From the UHGV virus genome UHGV-0308106: DNA of 55,105 bases, one strand, 5' to 3'. This document shows, piece by piece, positions 19,876 to 48,536 of this stretch (position 1 is its first letter; every line of letters begins with the position of its first letter). The DNA comes from a virus. The notes under the pieces are model-generated. The model ran no database searches. It saw nothing but the letters and a program-made list of their open reading frames with translations, and was not told the DNA's origin. Made by a program: the position numbers and the translations under genes.

Positions 19876-20349
19876 ATGGCTGCATTAAAACCTGATGTGA
19901 AAGCCTTCATCATTCAGTCGCTTGCGTGCTATGACACGCCGACGCAGGTGGTTGAGGCTGTCCAAAAAGAATTCGGGATCAAGATCACCCGCCAGCAGGC
20001 TGAATCTCACGACCCCACGAAGGCCAGCGGTAAGACGCTCGCCAAAAAGTGGATCGAGATGTTCCACGCTACGCGCGAACGGTTCCTGACCGAAACCAGC
20101 GACATTCCGATCGCGAACAAATCCTATCGCCTCCGCGTGCTTGACCGCATGGCAACCAAAACCGAGGGGATGAAAAACTTCTCCCTGACGGCGCAGCTGA
20201 TTGAACAGGCCGCGAAAGAGGTTGGCGACGCTTACACCAATAAGCTGAAGGTTGAAAGCACTGGCAAGGATGGCGGCCCGATCAAGACCGAGACGACCAA
20301 CCTCACCGCAGATCAGGCCGCAGAGATTTACCGCAAGATGATGGGGTGA
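19876..20349 (+). CDS. terS: Terminase small subunit (DUF2280-type), helper copy
   Basis: Lies before TerL. Has a paralog at 37662-38135. Confidence 0.75.
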   Translation: MAALKPDVKAFIIQSLACYDTPTQVVEAVQKEFGIKITRQQAESHDPTKASGKTLAKKWIEMFHATRERFLTETSDIPIANKSYRLRVLDRMATKTEGMKNFSLTAQLIEQAAKEVGDAYTNKLKVESTGKDGGPIKTETTNLTADQAAEIYRKMMG

Positions 20350-20658: not shown

Positions 20659-22281
20659 ATGCCTCTGCCGTTTGAATTCGATTTCAGAAACCCTGATTAC
20701 CAGATGGTTTTTGAATGGCGGATGGAGCGCTTACAGCGCATTCGCCAGAACCCTGAAATGCTGCCAGCACTAAAGCAGTTTTACCGCACCAACCCGGCAC
20801 AGTTCATCATCGACTGGGGTATGACTACTGACCCGCGTAACATCGATTATGGCCTGCCGGTCACAATCCCTTTTCTGCTGTTCCCGAAACAGGAAGAGTG
20901 GATTCACTGGATCATTGAGCGGCGCGAACGACTGGAGAACGGCATCACCGAAAAGAGCCGCGAAATGGGGCTCAGTTGGACCGCGATCGGGCTGGCCTGC
21001 TCGCTTTGTCTCTTCAACAAAGAAATGGTTATCGGTTTCGGCTCCCGTAAAGAGGAATACGTCGACAGCACCGGTGACCCGAAGGCGCTGTTCTGGAAGG
21101 CGCGAAAGTTCGTGGAAACACTGCCCATCGAGTTTCGTGGTTCGTGGGACGAGAAGAAGCATGCGCCGTATATGCGCGTTGAGTTTCCAGATACTGGCGC
21201 GGTTATCAAAGGCGAGGCTGGCGACAATATCGGACGTGGTGACCGTACCACGCTCTACCTGGTGGATGAAGCTGCATTCCTCCAGCGTCCTCTGTTGATT
21301 GATGCGGCGCTGTCGCAAACCACCCGTTGCCGTATTGACCTGAGCTCGGTTAATGGCATGGCGAACCCGTTCGCGCAGAAGCGCCACGGCGGAAAAATAC
21401 CAGTATTCACGTTCCACTGGCGAGATGACCCGCGCAAGGATGAAGAGTGGTATCGCAGGGAGTGCGAGAAAATCGACAATCCGGTGGTGGTGGCGCAGGA
21501 ACTTGACCTGAACTACAGCGCATCTGCGGAAGGCGTCCTGATCCCGTCCGACTGGGTACAGGCTGCCGTCGACGCGCATATCAAACTTGGTATTCAGCCA
21601 ACGGGCAAGCGACTGGGCGCGATGGACGTCGCCGACGAAGGCCGGGACAAAAATGCCTTTTCGACCCGTCACGGCTTCCTTCTGGAGAACGTGCGTGAAT
21701 GGTCCGGCGTTGGCAGCGACATTTACCAGTCTGTTGAGAAGGTCTTCGGCTTTTGCGAACAGGACAACCTCGAAGAGTTTCGCTTCGACGAGGACGGCCT
21801 GGGTGCTGGCGTTCGCGGCGATGCGCGCGCCATCAACGAACTGCGTTACGCAGCGCGCCGACCGTCAATACTCGCCACACCGTTTCGTGGTAGCGGCGCG
21901 GTATTTGATCCGGACGATGAAGCGGTGCGCGGGGACAACGGACAGGCCGCACGCCTGAACAAGGACTTCTTCGCCAACGCCAAGGCCCAGAGCTGGTGGT
22001 GGCTACGCAAGCTTTTCCAGAACACCTATCGCGCCGTGGTTGAGGGCATGGCCTACAACCCGGACGAAATCATCTCAATCAGCAGCGCCATGGCGAGCAA
22101 AGACAAACTCATCATTGAGCTGTCGCAGCCGACCTACTCCATTAATGGCGTGGGGAAAATCGTTGTTGATAAACAGCCTGATGGCACCAAGTCGCCGAAC
22201 CTCGCCGACTCGGTGATGATCAGCTACGCGCCAATGAATTCAGCCCTGAACATCTGGGAGCTGCTAGGGAGACAGGCCTGA
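20659..22281 (+). CDS. terL: Terminase large subunit
   Basis: 541 aa located before the portal gene. I prefer the start at MPLPFEFDF. Confidence 0.85.
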
Positions 22282-25627: not shown

Positions 25628-25648
25628 CTGCATATCTGTACCTTATGC
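25628..25648. repeat. Candidate attL of the satellite
   Basis: CTGCATATCTGTACCTTATGC compared with 38350-38370 TTGCATTCCTGTACCGGATGC: 16 of 21 nt match, with a shared CTGTACC core. Confidence 0.55.
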
Positions 25649-25833: not shown

Positions 25834-27063
25834 ATGATTGTTAGGCCACTAACTAACGTCGAAGTGAAAAGCGCGAAGGCACAGGGCAAGGATTTCAGTT
25901 TGCACGATGGTTTCGGTTTGTTGCTTTACATCACAAGCCGGGGCGGTAAGTCATGGCGTTTTCGGTATGTACACCCGGTAACGAAGAAGAGACAAACCTA
26001 TACCATTGGAAGATACCCGGAGTTTACTTTGTCCGAAGCGAGGGAGGAACGTTCGAAACTGCGCCGTATGGTAGCGCGGGGGATAGATCCGAACGAAGTC
26101 AAAAAAGATACCAGGAATGAACAGCGTAAAATGTACGCGCAGTCATTTCAGGCCGTTGCCGATGAATGGCTAAAAATCAAGATTAAAGAAGGTGCGAGAA
26201 GCAACACGCTTGAATCGCACAATGTGACGTTGAAGCATCTTTCCACGATTTTTAGGCATACCACAGTACATAAAATAAACGCAGCCGATACTATTCAGGC
26301 TTTTAAACCTTTCAGGGAAAGGCCATCAACGCTTACGAAAATGGTTATTACCATCAACGCCATAATGGATTATGCGGTAAATATTGGGGTTATTGAGCAC
26401 AACCCACTATCGAAAATTGGTAAAGCATTCCCGGCTGAAAAAAACGAACCAAGAGCGACTTTACAGAAAGAGCGGTTGCCAGAATTTTTAAGCGCATGGA
26501 ACGAGTTGAGCTTATGGGAGCCATCAAAGCTGGCATTATTATTTCAGATCATTACGATGGTCCGACCTTCGGAAGCTGGCGGCGCTCTCTGGAATGAGAT
26601 TGATTTTGATAATTCAATCTGGCAAATCCCTGCAAGCCGGATGAAAGGAAAGCGCCCCCACGTAGTCCCATTATCGAGCCAGGCTATAAACGTGCTTAAA
26701 GAGGCCGAAAAGTGGAAGCGCTGCGATTATGTTTTCCCCTCATGGCGAAAAGAAAATAAGCCGATCTCACGATGTGCGACTCAGGCCGGAATACACAAAA
26801 CGTCGTTTAAAGGAATGATTGTTCCTCATGGGTTCAGGGCGTTGGCATCTACAGTTTTAAATGACGAGGGGTTCAACCCTGATGTGATTGAGGCTGCACT
26901 CGCTCACAAAAGCGCCGATGCGATTCGAAATGTTTATAACCGTAGCGACTATCTGGAAAAACGCCGGGTTTTAATGCAATGGTGGGGGGACTTTATCGAG
27001 GCCGCAGAGCGTGGAGAGATACTGGAGACCAGCGGCGATAAGGGCTTAAGGCTGGTTGTGTAG
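25834..27063 (+). CDS. int: Satellite tyrosine integrase, P4-type
   Basis: LHDGFGLLLYITSRGGKSWRFRY..., HGFRALAST, LAHKSADAIRNVY. Confidence 0.9.
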   Translation: MIVRPLTNVEVKSAKAQGKDFSLHDGFGLLLYITSRGGKSWRFRYVHPVTKKRQTYTIGRYPEFTLSEAREERSKLRRMVARGIDPNEVKKDTRNEQRKMYAQSFQAVADEWLKIKIKEGARSNTLESHNVTLKHLSTIFRHTTVHKINAADTIQAFKPFRERPSTLTKMVITINAIMDYAVNIGVIEHNPLSKIGKAFPAEKNEPRATLQKERLPEFLSAWNELSLWEPSKLALLFQIITMVRPSEAGGALWNEIDFDNSIWQIPASRMKGKRPHVVPLSSQAINVLKEAEKWKRCDYVFPSWRKENKPISRCATQAGIHKTSFKGMIVPHGFRALASTVLNDEGFNPDVIEAALAHKSADAIRNVYNRSDYLEKRRVLMQWWGDFIEAAERGEILETSGDKGLRLVV

Positions 27064-27419: not shown

Positions 27420-27440
27420 ATGTTTGCAGATTTGGGAAAG

Positions 27441-27477: not shown

Positions 27478-27558
27478 TTGTCAGTGGTGGGGATCTGTAA
27501 CTTACGGCCACCAGCGCCGGTAATCACCTTCTGGCTGGTGGCTTCACTGGCATGGCTA

Positions 27559-27918: not shown

Positions 27919-27922
27919 GGTA

Positions 27923-28204: not shown

Positions 28205-28220
28205 TGGCTTATCTCCTTGT

Positions 28221-28270
28221 TGATGTAAATAATAACATCACAAACGAATGATGTAAATGATTACATCATT
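28221..28270. promoter_or_regulatory. Two palindromic operators upstream of the TA-like operon
   Basis: TGATGTAAATAATAACATCA (28221-28240) and AATGATGTAAATGATTACATCATT (28247-28270). Confidence 0.55.
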
Positions 28271-28679
28271 GCGGGTAAGTTACCGATGGCATGAACGGTT
28301 CGCTGCTGGTGGCTCTCGATCTCCTGAAAGCTCAGGATATTGCCGGGCATGATTTTAATCGGCGGACTTTTCGGCCGATTGAATACGGGCAGTTCGCTCC
28401 CTGTGTATCGGCTTCGTTTCTGGATGATTCGCGTTTCGTTTCTGGTGAATTCGCATTCGCAATTTGTCCGCGAAGCCTTATCAGGCCTGATTTGAGCGGT
28501 GCTCTCTCTTTGCGAATTCGCAGTTCCATTTCGCACTTTGATTCGCAGTTTTCAAATGTTCCCATTCCGGGGACACGGACGATTAGACAGGTGTTACAAA
28601 CGTTGGTGGTGAAATATCTTCTTGCGCTGGCGGGCACGGTGTGGTTATGATTATTTCGCACCTCACAAAACGGGTGCCG

Positions 28680-28905
28680 GGCGTGAGAACCCGGATAAGG
28701 TCAAAGGCGACAACAGACGCCTATCGCGTCTTTTTTTTGTCGCAATGTCAGTACCCCCATATGTAGCGGCGCAGATCCGCGCACAGAATCAATGGTGGCT
28801 CTGGCAGGGCAGCTTTCGGGCTGGCCGGTTCCCTTTGACGCCGGTATTCTCACCCCTGTCAGTGTCACCACCCTTTAGAGCGTGAGAACTCAGGTGGTGG
28901 CTCCT
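28680..28905 (+). ncRNA. Candidate c4/CI-like antisense-RNA immunity region upstream of the icd-like gene
   Basis: TTCTCAC (28847-28853) and CACCACC (28866-28872) are complementary to GTGAGAA (28882-28888) and GGTGGTG (28893-28899), which lie just 5' of the icd ribosome-binding site. GCGTGAGAAC occurs twice (28681 and 28880). A terminator hairpin plus T8 lies at 28716-28738. Confidence 0.3.
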
Positions 28906-28931
28906 TAAATTAGTCAAAGGAGATCATCATC

Positions 28932-29129
28932 ATGATGACTATCCCTACCCTCGCTCAAACAAAATTCACCTGGCGCTTTCTCGCGCTGAATCGCCACGAT
29001 AAAAAAGCCAAACCTTGCCGTCTGTCCGTTGAGGCTGCGACCGAACGCGAAGCCCGCCGCATCCTTGCGCCGCACTTTATTTTGTCTCTGGCCGCACGTC
29101 TGCCAGTGCCGGAGGTGCGTCATGTTTAA
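28932..29129 (+). CDS. Icd-like cell-division inhibitor family protein
   Basis: FLALNRHDKKAKPCRLSVEAATEREARRILAPHFILSLAARLPV. AAGGAG ribosome-binding site. Confidence 0.65.
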   Translation: MMTIPTLAQTKFTWRFLALNRHDKKAKPCRLSVEAATEREARRILAPHFILSLAARLPVPEVRHV

Positions 29130-30000
29130 CCTCCAGACACTGACAGCTAAAGCCCGTGAGCTGCGCGGCAACGTCGTTAAAGCGGCGAGCACAAAGGGAA
29201 GTCGCACCATGACTCCTGTCTATGACCGTGACGAGCAGCGCAAGCTACGCGAGCGCATCCAGCAGACACAGCCCGATTGGGTGTTGCTCTGGTGGGATAT
29301 TGCGACCGTAACCGGCTGGCGTACCAGCGACGTTTGCAACCTGCGCTATTCCTGCGTCAATTGGGAAACGGGGCAGGCGACAATTATCGTTGCCAAGCAG
29401 ACCAAAGCCGCCGAAGCGCGGGCAACCCGCAAAGGTATTGAAATTGTGCGCCAGCAGCGCAAGGACGCCGCGCGGCTCGCCGCTGACCATATCGCCTACA
29501 TGAAGTGGGATAGTATCGGTTGTGACGAACTGGCCGCCGATATGAACGACGAGGAACAGGCGATTGTGTTCGGGCTGGTGGCAAAGGCTGACGTCAAGCA
29601 CGACACCAAACAGTTACCGCCCGGCATTATCAAGCGGCTGCGTGACCGTCAGGATCGGAATCTGGTGGAGGACGACCTGGTATTTTCACGCTCTCAAATC
29701 GAAAGTAACCGTTGTCAACGTCTGGAAGGTAGCGTTACTCGCCAAACCATCTGGCGCAAACTTCATGGCGTCATGGCGTGGTTTACCCGTTTCATTAACG
29801 CTAAATTGCGCCTGAGCGCGTACTCAAGCCGAAAAATAGCAGCCTTTAATCTTATGTCCGCAGGTGGCGAACAGGGATTATTGGTGGCTTCTGAAATGCT
29901 GGGGCATAGCAACCCGGCGATAACTCGCACTTACCTTCAATTAGGCAGCAAAGCCGCCGCTATCCAGTCCCGTTTAGCAATGGAGGTGTGCCATGCGTAA
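29122..30000 (+). CDS. Tyrosine-recombinase-fold protein (atypical)
   Basis: TGWRTSD (R), YSSRK in place of HxxR, and LGHSNPAITRTYLQ (H..Y). GGAGGTG ribosome-binding site. Confidence 0.6.
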   Translation: MFNLQTLTAKARELRGNVVKAASTKGSRTMTPVYDRDEQRKLRERIQQTQPDWVLLWWDIATVTGWRTSDVCNLRYSCVNWETGQATIIVAKQTKAAEARATRKGIEIVRQQRKDAARLAADHIAYMKWDSIGCDELAADMNDEEQAIVFGLVAKADVKHDTKQLPPGIIKRLRDRQDRNLVEDDLVFSRSQIESNRCQRLEGSVTRQTIWRKLHGVMAWFTRFINAKLRLSAYSSRKIAAFNLMSAGGEQGLLVASEMLGHSNPAITRTYLQLGSKAAAIQSRLAMEVCHA

Positions 30001-30172
30001 TCTCTTTCATATCACTGGCTACGCCGTCAATAAACGCGGCCTGACAGTCGGTTTTAGCTATCTCATCGACGCCGAGGACGCCATGCAGGCAAAAGTTAAT
30101 GCCATTGCTGAGGCGAAAGACGATGAACTCACCCACGTATCTATTGCCCGTATTCTGGAGGTGGCAGCATGA
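29993..30172 (+). CDS. Hypothetical 59-aa protein
   Basis: Hand-translated, beginning MRNLFHITGYAVNKRG. GGAGG ribosome-binding site. ATGA overlap with the next gene. Confidence 0.55.
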   Translation: MRNLFHITGYAVNKRGLTVGFSYLIDAEDAMQAKVNAIAEAKDDELTHVSIARILEVAA

Positions 30173-30381
30173 GCAAAGTATCCCTGGCCGATTCAACCTG
30201 CCGTATCCAACAGGCGCAGGAAGTCCTGTCTCTCTGGCTTGAGGCGACGAATAAAAACGATAGCGGCACGGCTAAATTAATCGGCGCAATCATTTCCCTT
30301 CTGGATGGTATCCCCGAATTGATGGATTCAGTAGAGGATGAATTGGCTGGCATGGACTTAAAAGCGATGGATAAAGCATGA
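30169..30381 (+). CDS. Hypothetical 70-aa protein
   Basis: Translationally coupled ORF. Confidence 0.6.
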   Translation: MSKVSLADSTCRIQQAQEVLSLWLEATNKNDSGTAKLIGAIISLLDGIPELMDSVEDELAGMDLKAMDKA

Positions 30382-31004
30382 GCAACGTAGAGAAATTCAC
30401 ACCGGGAAATGCCGACTTATTACACGCCGAAGCCACACCGCACGGCGTAAACATCATGACCCGCAATGATGCCGGGATGTATGAGCATGTAGCCATTATC
30501 ACCTATGAGAGCGCTGTAAGCCGTCTGGATGCGGGAGAGTACGACGATACGCCAGATATCGGCTACGCCATTCATTTTGCCGTTGCTGATGGCGGGGCGC
30601 GTGGCTGGTTCGACTTTACCGCGCAGCATGAAGTAACCATGTGGCGCTGGCTGATTGCTGCGACGTTCGTTTCTGAGATGAAGCGCGAAAACGGCACAAC
30701 CTCCGTCACGGAGGCTGACGGCACAACATCGCAGGTGGCGATTTACTCCAATGGTAATGCGGGCATGGTGATTTACCCGTTTGCTGAACGGCTGGCGATG
30801 GCGAACAACATCGAGGGCGCAATGATTGAGCGATACGGCGTCGAACAGGGTACGGAAAAAGCCATTGTGTTTTATCAGGCCATGCTGGATACGGAGCGCG
30901 GCGAGCTTACCCCGTTCGGACGTGAAACGCTGGCAGAGCTACACGATCACTTCATTGCTGATCTGGATGAAAACGGCTGGCCTGAAATGCCAGCGGCGCA
31001 CTGA
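30378..31004 (+). CDS. Hypothetical 208-aa protein
   Basis: Coupled ORF upstream of the primase gene. Confidence 0.65.
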   Translation: MSNVEKFTPGNADLLHAEATPHGVNIMTRNDAGMYEHVAIITYESAVSRLDAGEYDDTPDIGYAIHFAVADGGARGWFDFTAQHEVTMWRWLIAATFVSEMKRENGTTSVTEADGTTSQVAIYSNGNAGMVIYPFAERLAMANNIEGAMIERYGVEQGTEKAIVFYQAMLDTERGELTPFGRETLAELHDHFIADLDENGWPEMPAAH

Positions 31005-31016
31005 GGGAGCGACACA

Positions 31017-33797
31017 ATGCGTAATATCGACCTTATCCGCGAAGTGACCAGCGCCGCAGCAGGGCGCTGGCCTTATGTGCTGGCTGGGTTGTCTATCGAC
31101 GTGCCTGATTCATCGCGCCGCCATTCTCCATGCCCTGCATGTGGTGGAAAAGACCGTTTCAGATTCGACGACAACGGGCGCGGTAGCTTTATCTGCAACC
31201 AGTGTGGCGCTGGTGACGGGCTGGATTTAATCAAGCGGGTTAACAACTGCGACACTACGGAGGCGGCACAGCTTGCCGCTGACGTGCTGGGTATTGATTA
31301 CCGGGCAGCGCAATCCGACCCGGTGGCAGCGAGCCATATAAGGGAGCAACTGGAAGCTGACCGCCAGCAGCGTGAGCAGGAGCGCCAGAAACAGGCAGCA
31401 GGGGACGCAGAGCAGCGAAGGGCTACGTTTGCCCGTCTGTATGCCGGAATGCGCCAGAGTGCCACACAGGGCGAATCTGATTACCTGCAATCAAAAGGGC
31501 TGACCGGGTTTAACTATCCGGTTATGCCTGATGGTTCGTTATTGCTGGAGCTGGTGGACGAATCCGGCGCAGTGGCAGCAGCGCAAACCATTACACCGCA
31601 GGGAGAGAAGCGACTCCTGACAGGTTCAGCAAAGCGCGGGGCATATCACGCCGTAAACGCGCCAGAATCGCCGCAGAGCGTTTTAATTGCCGAGGGGCTG
31701 GCGACGGCCCTTTCAGTTCACCTGATGCGCCCGGACGCGCTGGCAGTGGCAGCAATTGACGCGGGCAACCTGCTACCCGTTGCCGAAGTGATGCGCCGGA
31801 AGTACCCACAGGCACAAATCATCATTGCCGCAGATAACGACCAGATGGGCGAAAGTGACGGAATTAAAGGAGTGAAAGTTAACACTGGCAAGGAGGCCGC
31901 AGAGAAAGCCGCGAAAGCCGTTTCTGGCTGGGTTTCCATGCCACCAGTGGACTATAAAGCGGACTGGAACGACTACCACCAGCAATACGGCCTCGAAGCG
32001 GCCACAGCAGCATTTAACGACTCAATGTATCAACCGGAGGGTAAGAAAGTGGGTGCGACACTGACAGCTATCGACGGCGGCAAGAAAAAACTTGGTATCG
32101 ACGACGATCTGAAACCGCGAGTAGAGAGCCGTGCGGATGGCATTCACTGGATCACCCCGAAAGTGGACAAAGACACAGGAGAAATTATCAATACCGAGGC
32201 GTGGCTATGCTCTCCGCTGGAGATTGCTGGTGCGGGGAGTGATAACGCCAGACAGCGCTTTCTGATCCTGCGTTGGGACGTCCCCGGCAACCGGGGGCAA
32301 GTTACCCGTGCGCTTCCATGGGAGGACATTGGCGACCGTGAGGGATGGCGCACGCTGAAAAACGGCGGTGTCAGTGTGACAACCAAACCATCGTTGCGGG
32401 CAATTCTGGCCGACTGGCTGCAGCGAACTGGTAGCGGCAAGGAATGGCAGATCAGCCACACCACAGGCTGGCACAACGGGGCGTACATCATGCCGGATGG
32501 TGATGTTATTGGTGAGCCAGAGATACCGCTGTTATTCAGTGGTCGGAGTGCGGCGGCTGGTGGCTATACCGTCAGTGGAACGCCGGAAAGCTGGCGTGAT
32601 TCGGTGGCGCGTCTTGCGCTGGGAAACCCGTCAATGATGCTGGGCGTTGCTGCTGCGCTTTCTGCGCCGCTGATCGGGCTTGTTGGCGCTGACGGGTTCG
32701 GCGTGCATCTTTTCGAGCAGTCCAGCGCAGGGAAGACAACCACCGCCAACATTGCCAGCAGTTTATACGGTGAACCGGATGCCTTGCGCCTTACCTGGTA
32801 CGGTACAGCGCTGGGTATCGCCAACGAAGCGGAAGCGCATAACGACAGCCTGTTACCGCTGGATGAAGTGGGGCAGGGCAGTAGCGCCAAAGACGTTGCT
32901 ACGTCTGCTTACACGCTGTTTAACGGTGCCGGAAAGCTACAGGGGGCCAAGGAGGGCGGCAACCGTGAGTTAAAGCGCTGGCGCACCGTGGCGATCAGTA
33001 CCGGGGAAATGGACATTGAGACGTTTCTTTCTGCTGGTGGGCTGAAAGTTAAGGCCGGGCAACTGGTGCGATTGCTTAATTTACCGATGGAGAAATCAGT
33101 AACGCACCATGAGTACCAGAACGGGAAGCAACACGCCGACGCACTCAAAGAGGCTTACCAGACGAACCACGGAGCCGCAGGCCGTGAATGGATTAAATGG
33201 CTTGCAGGCCACCAGCAGGAGGCAAAACAAGCTGTCAGGGCGGCGCAAGAGCGCTGGCGCAGTCTTATCCCCGCTGATTATGGCGAACAGGTTCATCGTG
33301 TCGGTGAGCGGTTCGCCATTCTGGAGGCGGCGCTGGTGCTGGGGATGCCTGTCACTGGTTGGGGGGAGCAGGAAAGTCGGGACGCTATCCAGCATGGCTT
33401 TAATGCTTGGGTAAAAGAGTTTGGCACGGGGAACCGTGAGCATAAGCAGATCATCGAGCAGGCAGAGGCGTTTCTTAATGCCTACGGCATGAGCCGTTTC
33501 GCGCCGTTCCCGTATAGCCCGGCTGACATGCCGATCCGGGATTTAGCCGGATACCGTCAGAAAGGTGAGCATGACGAAAGCCCCGTAGTGTTCTACACCT
33601 TTCCGGCTGCGTTCGAAAAGGAGATAGCGCAGGGCTTTAATGCGAAACAGTTTGCCCGTGTGCTGGCCGGGGCTGGGGTACTGAAACCGCCAGCCAGCGG
33701 AAGGGGATATCAGCGTAAATCCCCGCGAATTGATGGACGCCAGATAAACGTTTATGTGCTCCAGCTACGACCCGACGAGATAGAGGGCGAAGAATAA
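31017..33797 (+). CDS. Primase-helicase (P4 alpha-like): zinc ribbon, Toprim and P-loop helicase
   Basis: CPACGGKDRFRFDD..CNQCG; LIAEGLATALS..AADND; Walker A SSAGKTT. Confidence 0.9.
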   Translation: MRNIDLIREVTSAAAGRWPYVLAGLSIDVPDSSRRHSPCPACGGKDRFRFDDNGRGSFICNQCGAGDGLDLIKRVNNCDTTEAAQLAADVLGIDYRAAQSDPVAASHIREQLEADRQQREQERQKQAAGDAEQRRATFARLYAGMRQSATQGESDYLQSKGLTGFNYPVMPDGSLLLELVDESGAVAAAQTITPQGEKRLLTGSAKRGAYHAVNAPESPQSVLIAEGLATALSVHLMRPDALAVAAIDAGNLLPVAEVMRRKYPQAQIIIAADNDQMGESDGIKGVKVNTGKEAAEKAAKAVSGWVSMPPVDYKADWNDYHQQYGLEAATAAFNDSMYQPEGKKVGATLTAIDGGKKKLGIDDDLKPRVESRADGIHWITPKVDKDTGEIINTEAWLCSPLEIAGAGSDNARQRFLILRWDVPGNRGQVTRALPWEDIGDREGWRTLKNGGVSVTTKPSLRAILADWLQRTGSGKEWQISHTTGWHNGAYIMPDGDVIGEPEIPLLFSGRSAAAGGYTVSGTPESWRDSVARLALGNPSMMLGVAAALSAPLIGLVGADGFGVHLFEQSSAGKTTTANIASSLYGEPDALRLTWYGTALGIANEAEAHNDSLLPLDEVGQGSSAKDVATSAYTLFNGAGKLQGAKEGGNRELKRWRTVAISTGEMDIETFLSAGGLKVKAGQLVRLLNLPMEKSVTHHEYQNGKQHADALKEAYQTNHGAAGREWIKWLAGHQQEAKQAVRAAQERWRSLIPADYGEQVHRVGERFAILEAALVLGMPVTGWGEQESRDAIQHGFNAWVKEFGTGNREHKQIIEQAEAFLNAYGMSRFAPFPYSPADMPIRDLAGYRQKGEHDESPVVFYTFPAAFEKEIAQGFNAKQFARVLAGAGVLKPPASGRGYQRKSPRIDGRQINVYVLQLRPDEIEGEE

Positions 33798-33821
33798 AAC
33801 ACACATACGAGATGTTTTTTT

Positions 33822-34114
33822 GTTGGTTCAGTTGGTTCAGTAACTATTTAATTAAGATAAGTATATGTATTTAATATATTTCTATACCCATAAGTGAACC
33901 AACACTGAACCAACAAATACCCATTTTGAACCAACAAATGCCGCTATTGAACCAACGCCCTTTTCTGGCTGGCCTGTAAATCTTTCCCACTGAACCAACA
34001 CGAAAATAGCGTTTGTTGGTTCAAAACAAGGCTTTGTTGGTTCACTCCTCAAGAAATAATCCTTACAAAACAACAATCTTTACAAATTGAACCAACTGAA
34101 CCAACTGAACCAAC
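33822..34114. repeat. Satellite replication origin: 12 copies of TGAACCAAC plus an AT-rich tract
   Basis: Forward copies at 33895, 33906, 33927, 33948, 33991, 34088, 34097 and 34106. Inverted copies at 33822, 33831, 34015 and 34036. AT-rich tract at 33841-33890. Confidence 0.8.
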
Positions 34115-34221
34115 ATGTTTTTGTTTATCTATAGAGTTTTTTCGGAGAGTAATTACGAATTTGGAGGGGCATCGCCTAAGCGACAGTATGCGGAAACGGC
34201 AACTTTGCGGAGCGGAAAAGA

Positions 34222-34252
34222 AAAAGCCCGCGCTGGAGAGGCGAGGGCTTTT
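34222..34252 (+). terminator. Rho-independent terminator
   Basis: AAAGCCC...GGGCTTT followed by a T-rich tail. Confidence 0.6.
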
Positions 34253-34397
34253 GTTAACCATGTTTATGCAATCACACAATGGTGGATCACCGTCATAGTA
34301 CCACGTCGATTTATCATTTCAATGTACGCAATGATGTTTACTAATATTGCAATTTATGCAATGATCAGAATTTAAACAACGCAAAAGGTTATGAACA

Positions 34398-34961
34398 ATG
34401 AAACAGATAACCAATGTTAATCTGGAAAGTGATAACGCTGGTGGTACAGTCGAGGTGACTTACTCCGATGATACGTTCGAAAGGCTGACCTGTTCGCTGC
34501 CTGTGGCTCTCGTCATTGCGAACCTTGCAACGACGCTTAAGCAGGAACGTGCAACACGCATTGCAACCGGCGACCGCCTGCGCCGGATGTATACCCGCGA
34601 TAGTGACATGATTACCCGCAGCGGCAGCGGCGCTTCTACGACCTCCACCGCGCCAACGTCAATGGACGCTGAATTTATGCGCCTGGTACGCGCTGTAGCA
34701 CCAAAGTATGACAACGCCCTTCCTGATACCGATCCTCGCCTTGTTGCGCTTGATGTGCTGCGTTACGCACCCGCTGAGGCATTCAGTGCGGTACACCCGA
34801 CCCCGCTATCAGAGATTCAGCTTGATCAGGCTATCGACGTTCTGGAACAGGTTGGCGACTACATGCGAGTTAACAACGTTTCACCGAAGATTCTCACCAC
34901 AGGCGACGCCATTCGCAGCATTAACACCGACAACGCCAGTTTCTGGCATCGCACGAAGTAA
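34398..34961 (+). CDS. Satellite protein ending in a helper-scaffold-like tail (candidate alternative scaffold / capsid-size redirector)
   Basis: The C-terminus TTGDAIRSINTDNASFWHRTK parallels the helper scaffold TTGDAQRP..SLNKQNADFWSNRKG. Confidence 0.7.
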   Translation: MKQITNVNLESDNAGGTVEVTYSDDTFERLTCSLPVALVIANLATTLKQERATRIATGDRLRRMYTRDSDMITRSGSGASTTSTAPTSMDAEFMRLVRAVAPKYDNALPDTDPRLVALDVLRYAPAEAFSAVHPTPLSEIQLDQAIDVLEQVGDYMRVNNVSPKILTTGDAIRSINTDNASFWHRTK

Positions 34962-34973
34962 GGAGCAATGAGC

Positions 34974-35162
34974 ATGGCTATTTATGACCCGAAATTAGCA
35001 GCAGGAAACCCGCAAAGCGCCGGGCGTAAACTCTTTGGCCGTGAACAGGCCGAGCAATTGCGGATGCGTAACAACTTCAACAACGAATGCCGCAATCTGG
35101 AAAAAGTCAACGAAGCGAATGCAAAGTTCTGGAGTGAACAGGATGAAAAAGCCAAACGTTAA
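34974..35162 (+). CDS. Small protein carrying a second scaffold-tail-like motif
   Basis: ..LEKVNEANAKFWSEQDEKAKR. An AAGGAG lies 9 nt before the ATG at 34974. Confidence 0.55.
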   Translation: MAIYDPKLAAGNPQSAGRKLFGREQAEQLRMRNNFNNECRNLEKVNEANAKFWSEQDEKAKR

Positions 35163-35310
35163 GCCGGTATTACTCTCTGGCGACCAGTTCGCCGCAATCT
35201 GCAAGATCCAGGAGCGCGAACGCCAGCGCTCCGATATTGGCGTAGCGCCGTCTGTCCATCAAATTGCCCGTGGGCTGGTGGCGAAAGCGCTGGCATCAAT
35301 TCAGGAATAA
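35143..35310 (+). CDS. Hypothetical 55-aa protein, possibly a small DNA-binding protein
   Basis: MKKPNVKPVLLSGDQFAAICKIQERER..SVHQIARGLVAKAL. The RHH-like reading is speculative. Confidence 0.45.
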   Translation: MKKPNVKPVLLSGDQFAAICKIQERERQRSDIGVAPSVHQIARGLVAKALASIQE

Positions 35311-35315
35311 CGACT

Positions 35316-36383
35316 ATGTCATATAACTGGATGCGCCATTTCGAGCTACAGCTCATCGATGAGAATGGCAAAGGAATTAGCCTTAGTGATTTCAAAGTTA
35401 CCTTTGATATAGAGCGTAACGATAACAAATGGCCAGCTGTTGCGACGGTCAAGATCTACAACCTTTCACCAACTACTCAGAACCGTATTATGCAACGTGA
35501 GTTTGCCAAAATTGTGTTGATAGCGGGGTATGATGGTCGTGCGCAGGATGTAAGGGCAAGTGATGTGGGGATTGCACGTGAAATATCAGCAAGCGAAGTG
35601 GGCCAGGCTAACGGCGCAAACTACGGAGTCATTTTCAGCGGTGATATCCGCTTCACTGTGACCGGAAAAGATAACCCTGTCGATTCATGGGTACAGGTGC
35701 AGGCTTGTGACTCTGTGGAGGCGTTTACCAGCGCATTTATCAACACCACTATCAGCAAAGGCTACACCACAGAAGATATTTATGTTGAGCTTATGAAAAG
35801 GCTGGAACCTTACGGCATTTCTCGCGGTATTGTTCCTGAATTCCCGGCAACGGTATTTCCTCGCGGTCGAGCCCTCTTTGGCTATGTCCATAACTATCTC
35901 GATGAAGTGGCCGCGCAGTGCAAAGCCACTTGGCAATTCAACTATGGAAAAGTCGATATTGTTCCCAGAGACAAGGCCACTCATGAAGCTGTGGTTCTCA
36001 ACGCTAATACCGGGCTTATCGGTATGCCTCAGCAGACCATCGGTGCGGGTGTGAATGTCAAATGCCTGATTAACTCACGGATTCACCTGAACGGGCTTAT
36101 CCAACTGGATCAGGCTTCGGTATATCGTAGCGCCTTATCTGCGGATCAAATTGCCCAAGCTGGTGGGCCAATTTCGGTGGAAAGCCAAAACGGAAACCTT
36201 GTCACTACTGGATTAACGCAGAGTCCGGCGAGCATTGCTACCGATGGTATCTATAAGGTTCGGTATATCAGTTACACGGGCGACACGCGCGGTCAAGCGT
36301 GGTATATGGATCTGGCGTGTGAGGCTCGCGGGAATTCTGATTTATTTTCAAGTTCATTTATGAATAAGCAGAGTGAAGAATGA
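35316..36383 (+). CDS. Baseplate hub protein, satellite paralog of 47472-48536
   Basis: Colinear over its full length with the helper protein (MSYNWMRHFELQL.. against MSLNWMRHFELQL..). Roughly 60% identical by eye. Confidence 0.8.
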   Translation: MSYNWMRHFELQLIDENGKGISLSDFKVTFDIERNDNKWPAVATVKIYNLSPTTQNRIMQREFAKIVLIAGYDGRAQDVRASDVGIAREISASEVGQANGANYGVIFSGDIRFTVTGKDNPVDSWVQVQACDSVEAFTSAFINTTISKGYTTEDIYVELMKRLEPYGISRGIVPEFPATVFPRGRALFGYVHNYLDEVAAQCKATWQFNYGKVDIVPRDKATHEAVVLNANTGLIGMPQQTIGAGVNVKCLINSRIHLNGLIQLDQASVYRSALSADQIAQAGGPISVESQNGNLVTTGLTQSPASIATDGIYKVRYISYTGDTRGQAWYMDLACEARGNSDLFSSSFMNKQSEE

Positions 36384-36724
36384 AGAAGATTATTTTACTG
36401 ATTGGTTTATTGGGCGCATCTGGAAGTCATGCTGCGCAGGTTATTACCATGCAGTGCGGAAACTTTCGCTTTGAGATGATAGAAAACTCGATGGCGAGAA
36501 TTAATGGTGAGTATGTAACATCTCAGAAAATTACAGAGTTCGGACAGAACGGGGCAAAAGTAGAAATGACGCTTATGCCTGCCAGCGATGGGAATCTGTA
36601 TGGGTTTGAATACATCCATCCTGACGGTAGCAAAAAGCGCTGGCTGAATGTTGAGCTTATCCGCACCAATATGAATCAGGCGCGGATCATTGGCTCGTTT
36701 GATTGTAAGCGCGTGAAGGGGTAA
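36380..36724 (+). CDS. Secreted small protein, satellite paralog of 48549-48893
   Basis: Signal peptide ending SHA/AQ. Conserved QCGxF near the mature N-terminus and DC(K/R)(R/K)VK at the C-terminus. Confidence 0.7.
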   Translation: MKKIILLIGLLGASGSHAAQVITMQCGNFRFEMIENSMARINGEYVTSQKITEFGQNGAKVEMTLMPASDGNLYGFEYIHPDGSKKRWLNVELIRTNMNQARIIGSFDCKRVKG

Positions 36725-36732
36725 GGGGAATC

Positions 36733-37395
36733 ATGCCATTCATTCGACCCGCAAATGAGCAGGATGTAACACAGCTTGTTCAGGACAATGCTAAAGCATC
36801 TGTAACCAATGCGTTACCTGGCATTATTCGTTCGTTCGATCCCGAAACTGTCACCTGCGATGTTGATATAGCCATTACGGCAAGAATGACGAAGGCTGGC
36901 ACAATGGGTGAAGATTTCCAGTATGAGTCCGTCCGCTATCCGATTCTTAACGATTTGCCTGTGGTTTTTCCGCGCGGGGGCGGAGTTACGCTTACTTTCC
37001 CGGTTAAAGATGGTGATGAATGCCTCATCGTATTCTCTTCGCGTTCGATTGATTTCTGGTGGCAGAACGGCGGTGTGCAGGAGCGAGCTGATGGGCGTAT
37101 TTTAGATCTGTCTGATGCGTTCGTTATTCCTGGCCCCCAATCACAGGTAAAGAAGATATCCAATATCAGTACCAACGCTGCGCAGCTGCGTACAGATGAT
37201 GGAGCGGCATTTGTAGAGGTGTCCGCTGGTGGAGCCATTACTATTACCAGCTCTCAAATCACCCTTAACGGGCCCGTGCAGGTAAACGGAACGATCACTT
37301 CCACTGGCGACCAAACGGCCAACGGTATCAGCCAGATTAACCATACCCACGGCGGCGTACAATCAGGCGGCAGCAACACAGGAAAACCACAATGA
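36733..37395 (+). CDS. Central tail spike (Gp138-N / gpV-like), satellite paralog of 49430-50170
   Basis: PGIIRSFDPETVTC..FPRGGG.TLTFPVK.GDECL..DFWWQ.GGVQ, and an apex reading HTHGGVQSGG. Confidence 0.8.
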   Translation: MPFIRPANEQDVTQLVQDNAKASVTNALPGIIRSFDPETVTCDVDIAITARMTKAGTMGEDFQYESVRYPILNDLPVVFPRGGGVTLTFPVKDGDECLIVFSSRSIDFWWQNGGVQERADGRILDLSDAFVIPGPQSQVKKISNISTNAAQLRTDDGAAFVEVSAGGAITITSSQITLNGPVQVNGTITSTGDQTANGISQINHTHGGVQSGGSNTGKPQ

Positions 37396-37571
37396 GCAAT
37401 ATTGAAAAACTGAAACCAGAAGAAAGCGGATCCAGCCAGAATGGTAAGGTTCGTACCTGGCTGGATGATATCAACGGGCAGCCGGAACCAGATGGTATTG
37501 GCAGCTTCGGTGAGAGTGCGATCTGCGAAGAATCACGCACAGCGGAAACCATGCGAAATAACGTAGGGTGA
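37392..37571 (+). CDS. Hypothetical acidic 59-aa protein
   Basis: Hand-translated, beginning MSNIEKLKPEESGSSQNGKV. ATGA overlap with the spike stop. Confidence 0.45.
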   Translation: MSNIEKLKPEESGSSQNGKVRTWLDDINGQPEPDGIGSFGESAICEESRTAETMRNNVG

Positions 37572-37598
37572 CGGTCAGATGACGTGATCTGTAACTTT

Positions 37599-37640
37599 AA
37601 GTAGCGGTGCAGGGGCAGAACTCAGCACGCTACTTTTATT
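37599..37640 (+). terminator. Hairpin plus T-rich tail before the satellite terS
   Basis: AAGTAGCG...CGCTACTT followed by TTATTTT. Confidence 0.5.
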
Positions 37641-37661
37641 TTCTTTGTCAAAAGGTGAACA

Positions 37662-38135
37662 ATGGCGGCATTACCAACAATGGCTAAGGTTATGATTATT
37701 CAATCATTAGCTTGCTACGAACCCCCTTCCAGAATCGTTGAGCTTGTAAAACAAGATTTTGGCATCGTCGTTACCCGGCAGCAGATATCGGCCTACAACC
37801 CTGAAAATACAATGGCAAAAAATCTTAGCCAAAAATGGGTAGAACTCTTTAATCACACTCGCGCCCGCTTCCAGAGTGAAATATCCGAGATCCCTATCGC
37901 TAACAAAGCGTACCGGCTGCGTATGCTCGATCGCATGGCTAACCGTGCAGAGGCAATCAAGAATTACGCATTAACAGCGCAGCTTATTGAACAGGCCGCG
38001 AAAGAGTGCGGGGACGCTTACACCAACAAATTAAAGGTTGAAACAACGGGTAAAGATGGTGGTCCGATCAGAACGGAAACAACGAACTTAACCGCCGAAG
38101 AAGCCGGGGAGGCATACCGCAAATTTATGGGATAA
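37662..38135 (+). CDS. terS: Terminase small subunit (DUF2280-type), satellite paralog
   Basis: Same length (157 aa) as the helper TerS. The C-terminal half is close to identical (LTAQLIEQAAKE.GDAYTNKLKVE.TGKDGGPI.TETTNLTA) and the N-terminal part is diverged. Confidence 0.8.
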   Translation: MAALPTMAKVMIIQSLACYEPPSRIVELVKQDFGIVVTRQQISAYNPENTMAKNLSQKWVELFNHTRARFQSEISEIPIANKAYRLRMLDRMANRAEAIKNYALTAQLIEQAAKECGDAYTNKLKVETTGKDGGPIRTETTNLTAEEAGEAYRKFMG

Positions 38136-38349
38136 CCACCAGCGCCGTGACACGTCACACGCAAAAATAGCACCGCCCATTAATGGGCTGGTGGCACAGC
38201 TTGCATATTGAAATTCCCTGTAAATCTTACAGATCTGGTATTGAGTAACTTACCCCATTCAGCGCCATACATCACAGAGCAGCCTATGGACTACACACAA
38301 AATCAGGCTGCAAATAAATCCTTATATTTCAGTTGATTAAATAATAGCC

Positions 38350-38370
38350 TTGCATTCCTGTACCGGATGC
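38350..38370. repeat. Candidate attR of the satellite
   Basis: Partner of 25628-25648. It overlaps the resumed reading frame of the cement gene. Confidence 0.55.
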
Positions 38371-38849
38371 CTGTTGGCATTGCCGGGGCTATCTCTCGCC
38401 CGCAGGACTTAACCGTCGAACCGGTGATCCTTAAATCCGCTAACGCCTTCGCTGCCTATGGTCTGGCTGGCAAATATGACGCTGACGGCTTTTTCGTGCC
38501 GCTGGCGGACGGTGACACCGCCGACAAGGTGAAGGGGATCTACGTTCGTCCGTATCCGACCACATCGCAGCCAGACATGGTTCGCCAGGTGGGGACGGAT
38601 AAGAACTTCCCGGGTGACGCCATGAAGCGTGGCTACATGACCGTTAATCTCGGTTCTGATTTTGATGCCAGCACCATCAAAAAAGGCGACCCGGTATACG
38701 TTGTCGTCTCCACTGATGAATCCATAAAAGTGCCGCTGGGCGGCTTCATGTCCACGTCCGTCAGTGGCAAAAACGTGGCGCTGACCAACGCCGAATTCAC
38801 AGGGGCCGGTGACGCTAACGGCAATGTAGAAATCTCCTGGAAGATTTAA
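38367..38849 (+). CDS. Capsid cement/decoration protein, with its native 5' end apparently displaced by the insertion
   Basis: Lies between the scaffold and the major capsid gene. There is no SD before the ATG at 38367. The frame upstream reads AFLYR, matching MTAYLY.. at 25624. Confidence 0.7.
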   Translation: MPVGIAGAISRPQDLTVEPVILKSANAFAAYGLAGKYDADGFFVPLADGDTADKVKGIYVRPYPTTSQPDMVRQVGTDKNFPGDAMKRGYMTVNLGSDFDASTIKKGDPVYVVVSTDESIKVPLGGFMSTSVSGKNVALTNAEFTGAGDANGNVEISWKI

Positions 38850-38860
38850 GGAACAGACAA

Positions 38861-39802
38861 ATGATTACTTTTGATCAGGCAACCGTAGATAGCTCCGGTG
38901 CCTTTCTCATCGGGGAGCTGGAGCGACTCGACCAGACGCTGAACCTGCCTCTGGTGGGGTACACCTGGACCCGAGATATTCAACTGCGTGAAGACGTGTC
39001 TATCGCAGATGACATTTCCAGCTGGACGAATACCAGCTTCGCCGCTGCGGGTACTGGTGCAAATCCGAATGGTAAAAACTGGGTAGGCAAAGACTCCACC
39101 GCTATTGCTGGCGTGAACGTGGATATCAGCAAAGACGGCAATCCACTGAACCTCTGGGGTATGGAACTGGGCTGGACCGTTGTAGAGCTGGCAGCTGCTC
39201 AGCAGGTAGGCCGCCCGATTGATACCCAGAAGTACGACGGGATGCAGCTCAAATGGCAGATGGACAACGACGAGCAGGTTTACATCGGTGATGACGCACT
39301 CGGCCTGAAAGGTCTGGCAAACCTCGTCGGTGTGACGCTGAACAACGCGCCGAAGACCTGGGCGAACTCAACCAACGACGAGATCCTCGATAGCGTGAAC
39401 AGCATTCTGTCTAATGCCTGGGCAGCATCCGGTTATTCCATCGTGCCTTCTGATCTGCGCATTCCGCCAGAGCAGTATTCACTGCTGGCGAGCCGTAAGG
39501 TTTCCGAAGCGGGTAACCAGTCACTGCTGACCTATCTGGCTGTGAACACTATCGCTTTCCACCAGAACGGCGTTCCGCTTGAAATCAAAGCGGTCAAATG
39601 GCTGAAAGGGCGTGGGGTTGGCGGTAAAGACCGTATGATCGCCTACACCAACGACAAGAAATACGTGCGCTATCCGCTGGTGCCGTTGCAGAGCGTTCCT
39701 GTCCAGTATCGCGGTCTGTATCAGATTGCGACCTACTACGGCAAGCTCGGTGCGGTTGAGCCAGTGTACAAAGAAACCCTGTCCTACGTGGACGGTATCT
39801 GA
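38861..39802 (+). CDS. Major capsid protein (DUF2184-type)
   Basis: 313 aa. Position and family are recalled from the DUF2213-cement-capsid gene order. Confidence 0.8.
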   Translation: MITFDQATVDSSGAFLIGELERLDQTLNLPLVGYTWTRDIQLREDVSIADDISSWTNTSFAAAGTGANPNGKNWVGKDSTAIAGVNVDISKDGNPLNLWGMELGWTVVELAAAQQVGRPIDTQKYDGMQLKWQMDNDEQVYIGDDALGLKGLANLVGVTLNNAPKTWANSTNDEILDSVNSILSNAWAASGYSIVPSDLRIPPEQYSLLASRKVSEAGNQSLLTYLAVNTIAFHQNGVPLEIKAVKWLKGRGVGGKDRMIAYTNDKKYVRYPLVPLQSVPVQYRGLYQIATYYGKLGAVEPVYKETLSYVDGI

Positions 39803-47471: not shown

Positions 47472-48536
47472 ATGTCTCTTAACTGGATGCGCCATTTTGA
47501 GTTGCAGCTGTTGGACCAGAACGGGCAGGGTATTTCCCTGTCTGATTTTAAGGTCACGTTCCAGATCGAGTGGGCAGATACACGCTGGCCGCGCGTGGCA
47601 AACGTGAAAATTTACAACCTTTCGACCGATACCACGAACAAGATACTGGGGCAGGAGTTTGCAAAAATTCGCATCATTGCCGGGTATGACGGTATTGCGC
47701 CGGATGTTGATGCGAGCCAGGTTGGTGTCGCCCGGGAGATTTCACCAGACCAGGTAGGGCAGGTGAACGGTCAGAACTACGGCCTGATATTTGACGGTGA
47801 TATTCGCTTCACCGTCACCGGGAAGGACAACATCACCGATTCCTGGGTGCTGATTCAGGCCATCAGTAACCACGAAGCGTTCCTCTACGCGACTACCATC
47901 ACCACGCTTGCCGCTGGCTATACCGTTGCGGATCTGCACCGGGCGACGATGCAGGATTTCAACGCGTTCGGCGTGACACAGGGCATTACCGGCGATTTTC
48001 CTGATACCGTGTTTCCTCGTGGCCGCGCGATTTACTCATCCAGCCGCAACGTGATGGATAATATTGCTGCGCAGTGCAAAGCGACATGGCAACTGGTGGA
48101 TGGTCAGGTCCAGATGGTGCCGGAGGATAAATATATTCACGAAGCCATTGTGTTGAATGCCAATACTGGCCTGATCGGTATGCCGCAACAAACGATGGGC
48201 GGCGGAGTAAACGTGCGGTGCCTGATAAACCCAAACATCCGTATTAATGGTCTTATCCAGCTCGATCAGGCTTCGGTGTACCGCGCCACGCTCGGCAATA
48301 GCGAAATAGCACAGTCGCCCGGGCGTATCACCGAAACAGAAGAGAACGGCAACCGTGTGCTGACCGGCACGACGTCACAGGCTGCCAGCATTGCGACGGA
48401 TGGCGTTTATATCGTCAAAGCTATCGACTATACTGGCGACACCAGAGGTCAGGCGTGGTACATGGATTTGATGTGTTTTGCGCGTGGCGCTCGTGATCTT
48501 TATAGCCCGAAAGCAATGCAAGGGACGACGAATTAG
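47472..48536 (+). CDS. Baseplate hub protein, helper copy
   Basis: Paralog of 35316-36383. Confidence 0.8.
   Translation: MSLNWMRHFELQLLDQNGQGISLSDFKVTFQIEWADTRWPRVANVKIYNLSTDTTNKILGQEFAKIRIIAGYDGIAPDVDASQVGVAREISPDQVGQVNGQNYGLIFDGDIRFTVTGKDNITDSWVLIQAISNHEAFLYATTITTLAAGYTVADLHRATMQDFNAFGVTQGITGDFPDTVFPRGRAIYSSSRNVMDNIAAQCKATWQLVDGQVQMVPEDKYIHEAIVLNANTGLIGMPQQTMGGGVNVRCLINPNIRINGLIQLDQASVYRATLGNSEIAQSPGRITETEENGNRVLTGTTSQAASIATDGVYIVKAIDYTGDTRGQAWYMDLMCFARGARDLYSPKAMQGTTN

Follow-up and report, generated by a model that had tools for sequence, protein, structure and literature searches.

A DUF2280 protein of a helper-embedded phage satellite is a candidate small terminase with a tail matched to the helper large terminase

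The viral genome UHGV-0308106, of which the whole stretch of 55,105 nucleotides (nt) is called the window here, contains two genes for DUF2280 proteins. One of them belongs to a prophage and lies upstream of its gene for the large terminase (TerL), and the other is the final gene of a 12.7-kb satellite, which has integrated, in the same orientation, into the 5' end of the cement-protein gene of this SEN34-like lambdoid myovirus prophage. We consider it moderately probable that the latter gene encodes the satellite's own small terminase (TerS), which would direct the helper TerL to satellite DNA. This proposal starts from four observations, namely the satellite identity of the element, the paralogy of the two genes, purifying selection on the satellite copy and the covariation of its C-terminal tail with the TerL family. 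Docking on TerL, recognition of a separate packaging (pac) site and expression by read-through may be deduced from them. The genes and the element in question are as follows.

37662..38135, plus strand: satellite terS paralog, 157 aa, DUF2280 (Pfam E = 3e-39)
19876..20349, plus strand: helper prophage terS, 157 aa, DUF2280, 64% identical to the satellite copy, upstream of terL
20659..22281, plus strand: helper large terminase gene terL, 540 aa, phrog_2 (PHROG match), presumed partner of both TerS proteins
about 25643-38364: satellite, delimited by attachment-site (att) cores and empty-site comparison

A tblastn search revealed the helper copy at 19876..20349 as the sole paralog of the satellite terS within the window (101 of 157 residues identical, gapless, E = 6e-71). 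The Pfam DUF2280 match spans residues 1-102 in both proteins, which are also both members of PHROG 546. The original prediction, made from the DNA letters, described the two proteins as close to identical from about residue 75 and as heavily substituted before it. The equal length of 157 residues and the conserved string that it quoted were found in the sequence. When identity was plotted along the alignment, the gradient was indeed present, with 36 of 74 identical residues (49%) in positions 1-74 and 65 of 83 (78%) in positions 75-157 (Fisher p = 1.2e-4). Near-identity holds for about residues 101-145, where windows of 20 residues reach their maximum of 85-95%, but neither for residues 81-105 (60-65%) nor for the last helix. 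Likewise, "heavily substituted" is too strong for the N-terminal half, in which half of the residues are still identical, and the low point of 30-35% is confined to residues 36-65. By predicted structural element, identity amounts to 90% in the beta-hairpin 123-142, 84% in the helix 102-120 and 71% in the helix 78-98. For comparison, pairs at 59-69% overall identity were drawn from 118 homologs as a family null; these pairs are non-independent, and the observed 30-point gap falls into their top 3.3%, which is unusual but not extreme. Thus, the asymmetry between the two halves is real and larger than usual.

Identity at third codon positions is 32% in the N-terminal and 43% in the C-terminal half. 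Moreover, the proportion of synonymous differences (pS) according to Nei and Gojobori is 0.77-0.88 throughout, whereas nonsynonymous divergence (dN) is 0.40 in the N-terminal and 0.15 in the C-terminal half. Since the synonymous sites are saturated, the two genes are old paralogs, and it is selection that has preserved the conserved part. A recent gene conversion cannot account for the conserved C-terminal half, given its third-position identity of 43% and its pS of 0.78.

The relation between the C-terminal tail and the TerL family was first assessed for 25 curated loci and then automatically for 123 DUF2280 genes; the exact correspondence was counted for those 83 genes that are followed by one of three main TerL clusters. 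In these phages, the DUF2280 gene is located immediately upstream of terL and often overlaps it. The tail class matches the TerL cluster in all 83 cases (71, 7 and 5), without exception.

Tail class B, ending ..REMLEDDDC: ~490-aa TerL downstream in 71/71 loci
Tail class C, ending ..LPVEPK / VGVDP: 415-443-aa TerL downstream in 7/7 loci
Tail class A, ending ..Y(K/R)K(M/F)MG: 540-aa TerL downstream in 5/5 loci

All 19 satellite copies that adjoin a cement gene carry the class A tail, and none of them is linked to terL; the satellite copy is followed by an att arm and the helper cement gene instead, as expected for a satellite. The helper TerL of the window is 95-99.6% identical to the TerL proteins of SEN34, EC2001 and ECONIH5. 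TerL proteins of 540 residues that are 95-98% identical are also paired with unrelated TerS scaffolds, namely a phrog_51 protein of 205 aa in EC2001 and a phrog_1206 protein of 209 aa in SEN34. These scaffolds have in common with DUF2280 only the C-terminal segment with the motif ..AExY(K/R)K(M/L)MG, which is aligned with DUF2280 by BLASTP (...TGKDGGPVKADITSMSPQDVAEAYKKLMG). Using hhalign, DUF2280 could be matched to the phrog_51 TerS over residues 78-157 (E = 1e-10, driven by the tail) and to the phrog_1206 TerS over residues 132-157 (E = 1.4e-5). The covariation of the tail with TerL and the presence of the same tail on unrelated scaffolds argue that the TerL-matching element is the C-terminal moiety, minimally about 17 residues. 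Only about the last 17-30 residues covary with the TerL family, while residues 75-125 correspond to the predicted oligomerisation core, which is conserved family-wide. Therefore, the term "TerL-facing half", which had been applied to everything from residue 75 onwards, suits the tail but is too broad, because the helper copy ranks only 50 among 119 family members in its similarity to the satellite protein over residues 75-125. It has been shown that residues 140-162 of P22 TerS and the C-terminal region of lambda TerS bind TerL (PMC9611059), and a TerL-matching tail at the C-terminus would be consistent with both systems. A short C-terminal motif that predicts the TerL partner should be useful for interpreting swaps of terminase modules and for engineering packaging specificity.

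The slot for terS, or for terS together with terL, is a recombination hotspot, as helper prophages that are otherwise 96-99% identical carry four TerS types: DUF2280, the 205-aa phrog_51 type, the 209-aa SEN34 type and a 251-aa type with a PBSX TerL. The alternative terS genes are located at positions 2446-3063 of locus L002, 1-630 of L027 and 2815-3570 of L003. The three TerS types that are paired with the 540-aa TerL all end in ..AExY(K/R)K(M/L)MG. In the window, a 308-bp insert at 20351-20658 separates the helper terS from terL, which directly follows terS in E. coli ECONIH5. The insert is moron-like and contains a minus-strand open reading frame (ORF) of ~70 aa (about 20375-20590), which has a GGAGG ribosome site, resembles HEAT repeats and is followed by a hairpin (20351-20372).

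An AlphaFold2 model of the satellite TerS with a predicted local distance difference test (pLDDT) score of 67 contains three short helices (6-17, 22-33 and 39-43), that is, a helix-turn-helix (HTH)-like N-domain at residues 6-43. It continues with a helical core spanning residues 50-120 and a beta-hairpin at 123-142, and the C-terminal helix (145-156) bears the ..AGEAYRKFMG motif. In this model, the predicted order of elements agrees with the canonical TerS layout (review PMC9611059). With Foldseek, small terminases were ranked on top of the PDB matches, but without significance, and PDB sequence searches with the single protein and with a profile of 76 sequences yielded only chance matches such as OspC. 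Similarity to the satellite TerS differs strongly along the protein: among 119 family members, the helper copy ranks 104 for the N-domain but is tied for the top rank for residues 126-157. By these ranks, the satellite N-domain is among the least helper-like in the family and the tail is tied for the most helper-like.

The 24 satellite copies, comprising nine distinct sequences, have only 21 variable positions, which are evenly spread, and the stretch that is least like the helper protein is near-invariant among them. Moreover, dN among satellites is 0.006-0.03, whereas synonymous divergence (dS) ranges from 0.2 to above 0.7, corresponding to a dN/dS of about 0.02-0.05. These values reveal strong purifying selection and argue that the satellite terS is functional. 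The near-invariance of the N-domain and the low dN/dS also argue that this domain has not decayed but is a conserved, lineage-specific module, and it may recognise a pac site different from that of the helper.

A related satellite, integrated at the tRNA-Thr gene of E. coli G5, allows the two halves of the gene to be compared at synonymous sites. Between the window and the G5 satellite, the 5' half of the gene has diverged less at these sites than the 3' half (pS 0.445 vs 0.77, p = 0.001). The same was observed in seven of seven close pairs of phage DUF2280 genes (L005-L022), and mid-gene mosaicism is clear in some phage pairs, such as L006 and L010. The low synonymous divergence of the 5' half could hint at an embedded cis-acting site, but mid-gene recombination would fit equally well. 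No DNA shared with the helper that would suggest mimicry of a pac or cos site was found, the best identity between satellite and helper being 72%. Mimicry of this kind was rejected as there is no match above 72%, and the longest exact run of 21 nt lies in the codons for IEQAAKE and is lost in the G5 satellite. At the start of the satellite terS there is also a 9-bp direct repeat, AACAATGGC, which is not conserved in G5.

The same satellite with a terS gene at its right end was identified in E. coli ECONIH5, EC2001 and ET791, in Apirhabdus and in IMG/VR contigs, and the composite of satellite and helper is present at nine of the ten listed places of a 98% identical protein. The G5 element has a different integrase, and the same hairpin-terS cassette is found at its end. 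Overall, the cassette is present in 10 of 11 satellites with an evaluable right end, in searches that were not seeded with TerS. In 9 of 11 composites with a visible terminase module, one and the same satellite TerS (92-100% identity) is found beside a single helper TerL family, although the helper TerS proteins belong to three different families. A protein that needs the helper TerL, but not the helper TerS, would fit this pattern, which speaks against mixed rings of both TerS proteins as the main role.

Two further relatives deserve mention. The first, locus L040 (Logan SRR31860670, 2437 bp), encodes a 75% identical satellite-type TerS, which is preceded by a tail-fibre-like gene and followed by a small ORF resembling the 62-aa ORF at the right end of the satellite in ABWA45. 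About 650 bp beyond this TerS, an arm-binding integrase starts in the same orientation, so that the arrangement resembles the junction of a circularised or tandem satellite. The second, IMGVR_UViG_3300045988_080056 (L131 / L044), has satellite TerS, integrase and hub proteins that are 100% identical to those of the window. It lacks the 308-bp insert after the helper terS and has a different spacing in the primase region, and is thus a close relative with a distinct sequence.

Several findings weigh against a packaging role of the satellite protein. The last helix (145-156), which contains the presumed docking motif, has only 7 of 12 residues (58%) in common with the helper's, and a weaker gradient of the same direction exists family-wide, as the C-terminal half exceeds the N-terminal half by 9 +/- 11 points in the null pairs. 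No pac site was located. The conserved core would also permit mixed rings of helper and satellite subunits. Two of the 11 terS-bearing composites (ET791 and IMG/VR 3300045988_113726) contain a PBSX-type TerL together with a 251-aa TerS with an unrelated tail, and in ABWA45, another PBSX composite, the satellite has no terS at all. Finally, DUF2280 is "uncharacterised" in Pfam, phrog_546 is of "unknown function", and no curated terminase label exists for either. The two mismatches indicate that swaps of the prophage terminase module create such combinations and that co-residence is not always a working match, and the ABWA45 satellite reveals that the gene is dispensable for persistence. Two explanations of the latter case were ruled out. 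ABWA45 has not exchanged DUF2280 for a PBSX-matched TerS, because the 251-aa helper TerS and the M41-like protein of the satellite (239 aa) show no similarity, nor does the loss of terS track the PBSX helper, because ET791 and IMG/VR 113726 retain terS beside a PBSX TerL. The prediction of a pirate TerS thus keeps its footing in the satellite location, purifying selection, the TerL-matched tail and the divergent N-domain, and is qualified by the 2 of 11 composites with a mismatched TerL.

With these labels in mind, it may be asked whether DUF2280 is a small terminase in the first place, or rather a regulator or an accessory packaging factor, for instance; the paralogy would then be silent on pac recognition. 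The protein belongs to no curated or solved TerS family in Pfam, PHROG or the PDB, there is no significant structural match, the hhalign hit to the phrog_51 TerS is the sole significant link, and the search for other TerS candidates in the helper was not exhaustive. We nevertheless consider this very unlikely, given the 83 phage loci with DUF2280 immediately upstream of terL, the curated TerS families with the same C-terminal tail that occupy this very slot in SEN34 and EC2001, and the predicted domain order, which would agree with TerS. If the assignment as small terminase is correct, DUF2280 / phrog_546, which is widespread in enterobacterial prophages and still labelled "unknown", would obtain a function.

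The possible mixed rings bear on a second alternative, in which the satellite protein mainly poisons helper packaging, either via mixed assembly or by titrating TerL, and thereby lowers the helper yield, instead of or besides specifying satellite packaging. The core helices H5 and H6 and the beta-hairpin, which are 71-90% identical to those of the helper, and the shared tail class would allow this, and interference at the packaging step is common for satellites, with Ppi and Gpi as examples (PMC11417361). However, the same satellite TerS resides beside unrelated helper TerS families in EC2001 and L130, where mixed rings are unlikely, and a pure poison would not need strong purifying selection on an N-terminal DNA-reading domain. 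Interference as the main role is therefore improbable in our view.

We judge it similarly unlikely that terS is a passively captured late gene, whose N-terminal divergence would reflect another donor phage and whose product might share its recognition site with some phage or lack an essential role. Its fixed cassette boundaries in 10 of 11 satellites are unlike those of the variable hub/spike or M41-like cargo, the gene persists in two integrase and site lineages that differ at saturated synonymous sites of the 3' half, and a dN/dS of about 0.02-0.05 is hard to reconcile with passive carriage. These arguments have to be balanced against the capture of late genes described for helper-embedded phage-inducible chromosomal islands (HE-PICIs) (PMC10111431), the hub and spike paralogs just upstream, which have a similar nucleotide identity of 67-71% to the helper, the ABWA45 satellite and the two mismatched composites, as well as the mid-gene mosaicism in the DUF2280 family.

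For the preferred role as the satellite's own small terminase, the following mechanism can be envisaged. The satellite TerS would assemble via the family-conserved helical core (about residues 50-120) and dock on the 540-aa helper TerL by its C-terminal moiety, of which the last ~17 residues (..LTAEEAGEAYRKFMG) would be the minimum. The lineage-specific HTH-like N-domain, which is most unlike the helper at residues 36-65, would recognise a packaging site on the satellite DNA. This site may be located in or beside the 5' half of the satellite terS, by analogy with P22, Sf6, SPP1 and the Staphylococcus aureus pathogenicity island (SaPI) SaPI1, in which the packaging site has such a position. TerL would then begin headful packaging of satellite concatemers. 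Expression of terS may occur by read-through, plausibly from the Q-antiterminated late transcript of the helper before the satellite is excised, which is speculative; the Q antiterminator of the helper and the co-orientation of the satellite with the late operon lead to this idea, as discussed for HE-PICIs.

A more far-reaching reading joins these elements and is put forward tentatively, as we think it rather doubtful in its entirety. DUF2280 TerS proteins would consist of two exchangeable modules, namely an N-terminal reader tied to a pac site in the 5' half of its own gene and a ~17-residue docking peptide that alone determines TerL compatibility and is common to unrelated TerS scaffolds. 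The satellite would combine a private reader and pac site with the docking peptide of the helper, and its TerS would be made only on late read-through. If this were true, satellite packaging would be timed by cis-coupling and not by a trans-acting inducer, and the particles would carry satellite DNA in helper heads and have a tail tip specified by the satellite with its own hub and spike.

The DNA that flanks the satellite terS can be divided into the following features.

37578..38160, plus strand: conserved terS cassette with hairpin, terS and the GTGAC..GTCAC inverted repeat; homology in all relatives resumes exactly at 37578
37599..37649, plus strand: terminator-like hairpin and T-run, stem at 37599-37635 (-19.4 kcal/mol, z = -3.0 vs shuffles)
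38161..38357, plus strand: right att arm of the satellite, restricted to the integrase type that targets the prophage; contains the non-conserved palindrome 38175-38188

Every related satellite has this cassette, even the G5 element at tRNA-Thr, and variable late-zone DNA adjoins it on the left. The hairpin stem is followed by TTTTATTTTCTTT, and its outer 8-bp stem and the T-run are retained in almost every related satellite, among them one with 85% identity; a single mismatch in the outer stem occurs in L004, and there is no covariation. The folding energy and this conservation bear out the claim that terS is preceded by its own hairpin terminator. The terS start lies 12 nt behind the T-run and has a Shine-Dalgarno (SD)-like AAGGTG at 37652-37657; this distance is too short to accommodate a promoter, and no sigma-70-like promoter was found in the region 37000-38900. 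Because a terminator is located directly upstream and an own promoter was not found there, the gene is probably expressed via read-through.

Downstream of terS, palindromes are present at 38147-38158 (GTGACACGTCAC) and at 38175-38188 (GCCCATTAATGGGC, 14 bp). The description of 38136-38250 as palindrome-rich DNA had implied more than this, but the region folds no better than shuffled sequences (z -1.2 and -0.8), and the palindromes are mostly not conserved. Among the downstream repeats, only GTGAC..GTCAC (38147-38158) survives in the divergent G5 element, while GCCCATTAATGGGC is disrupted without compensation in sister satellites. Homology with G5, which has another integrase and another site, stops near 38160, so that 38161-38357 can be assigned to the att arm. 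The downstream palindromes were therefore rejected as a pac or terminator signal: they fold at shuffle level, GCCCATTAATGGGC is broken in sisters and the region varies with the integrase type.

The satellite and its insertion site are defined by comparison with uninterrupted relatives. The window matches Citrobacter phage Omnitron and Salmonella phage SEN34 up to position 25648 and again from 38351 onwards. The empty site corresponds to codons 5-7 of the gene after DUF2213, which in SEN34 encodes a Phage_cement protein starting with MTAYLYRMPVG. The features of the element and of the interrupted gene are listed here.

25636..25642: attL core CTGTACC (empty sites in phages Omnitron and SEN34)
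25834..27063, plus strand: satellite integrase, an arm-binding tyrosine recombinase (Pfam Arm-DNA-bind_3 and Phage_integrase)
27207-27419: AlpA homolog (RefSeq annotation of the 98% identical EC2001 copy)
27559-28204, minus strand: two-gene toxin-antitoxin cassette of the TumE family (DUF6516; annotation in 96-98% identical E. coli copies)
28658..28875, plus strand: isrK and C4 RNAs, P4-type immunity region (Rfam gathering-level; isrK 61 bits, C4 79 bits)
31017..33797, plus strand: satellite primase with Zn-ribbon, Toprim and DUF927 (Pfam)
35316..37395, plus strand: satellite late-zone genes for a baseplate hub (355 aa), a 114-aa protein and a spike (220 aa) (Pfam/PHROG)
38358..38364: attR core CTGTACC (empty sites in phages Omnitron and SEN34)
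38367..38849, plus strand: helper cement/decoration protein gene (Pfam Phage_cement), whose first seven codons and SD sequence are cut off by the satellite

The element is a true satellite, as it possesses att sites, an integrase, a primase and P4-type immunity RNAs of its own, and the placement of the gene on a satellite holds. The zones are arranged in the order integrase/AlpA, isrK/C4, primase and, at 35316-38135, hub, spike and terS; all major satellite genes are located on the plus strand like the late operon, and the DUF2280 terS is the final one. The adjacent isrK and C4 antisense RNAs represent a P4-type CI/seqA immunity arrangement. In addition, there are an Icd-like gene and another gene resembling a recombinase, and no terL, portal or capsid gene was found among the satellite ORFs scanned with Pfam and PHROG. 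The late-zone genes are old paralogs of helper genes at 47472-50170, with amino acid identities of 63% for the hub, 31% for the 114-aa protein and 51% for the membrane-puncturing spike (67-71% at the nucleotide level). Sister satellites hold a 197-aa protein and an M41-like protein in the hub/spike slot, and the variable late zone could alter the tail tip of the particle. Upstream of the insertion, the helper encodes a Q antiterminator (15263-16045), lysis genes, the DUF2280 terS, the 540-aa terL, a portal, a MuF-like protein and DUF2213, and downstream of it the cement protein, a DUF2184 capsid protein and the contractile tail. As the integration strips the cement gene of seven codons and the Shine-Dalgarno sequence, translation can start only at the internal ATG at 38367. 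Excision of the satellite would restore the gene, which would correspond to the "regulated gene integrity" of HE-PICIs.

The own TerS homolog of pac-type SaPIs is known to direct the helper TerL to the satellite pac site (PMC11417361, PMC6092414). Like the SaPI TerS (TerS_S) of Staphylococcus aureus, the protein described here is a homolog of the helper small terminase that is carried by a satellite without terL. As far as can be read from the genes, the element with its integrase and replication genes, without terL, portal and capsid genes and with a helper TerS homolog that has a TerL-matched tail may thus follow the SaPI strategy. In contrast to SaPIs, the system belongs to an unrelated protein family (DUF2280), has a Gram-negative host and a myovirus helper, and is embedded in the helper itself, and its function is deduced here. 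Moreover, neither a Ppi-like inhibitor nor genes for capsid size could be identified, the small satellite ORFs not having been analysed for a Ppi-like inhibitor. TerS piracy by SaPI satellites has reportedly been known since 2007-2009. The case would therefore establish no new principle, and the best model, by analogy, is a SaPI-type strategy in a helper-embedded, P4/PICI-like satellite of SEN34-like phages.

With the HE-PICIs described by Tommasini, Mageeney and Williams in 2023 (PMC10111431), the satellite shares the location in a helper late gene that is restored only upon excision, the co-orientation with the late operon and the order of zones, that is, Int/AlpA, immunity RNA (C4/isrK), primase and captured late genes. 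However, the HE-PICI model 11capE is devoid of terS and presumed to be cos-packaged (PMC10111431), whereas the satellite described here has its own terS. Neither the cement-gene site (codons 5-7) nor DUF2280 is named in the text or the searched supplements of that study, in which 14 sites are given for the HE-PICI integrase clade. As in P22 and lambda, a short C-terminal segment of TerS is linked to TerL, here by covariation only and for the last ~17-30 residues, but the motif ..AExY(K/R)K(M/L/F)MG has a different sequence. The resemblance to P4 is limited to the C4/isrK RNA, the Icd-like gene and the primase; sid, psu, delta and a P2-type cos site were not found among the scanned ORFs, some small ORFs being unscanned. 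PICIs of the EcCICFT073 type (via Rpp), P4 and SaPIbov5 also redirect helper packaging, but these elements have no terS and either re-programme the helper TerS or copy its site, whereas the satellite in the window has its own TerS and no match above 72% to helper DNA. The natural series of composites, in which one satellite TerS meets three helper TerS families and one TerL family, besides two mismatches, provides ready-made specificity controls. The satellite would add a pac-type example with its own TerS to the helper-embedded satellites.

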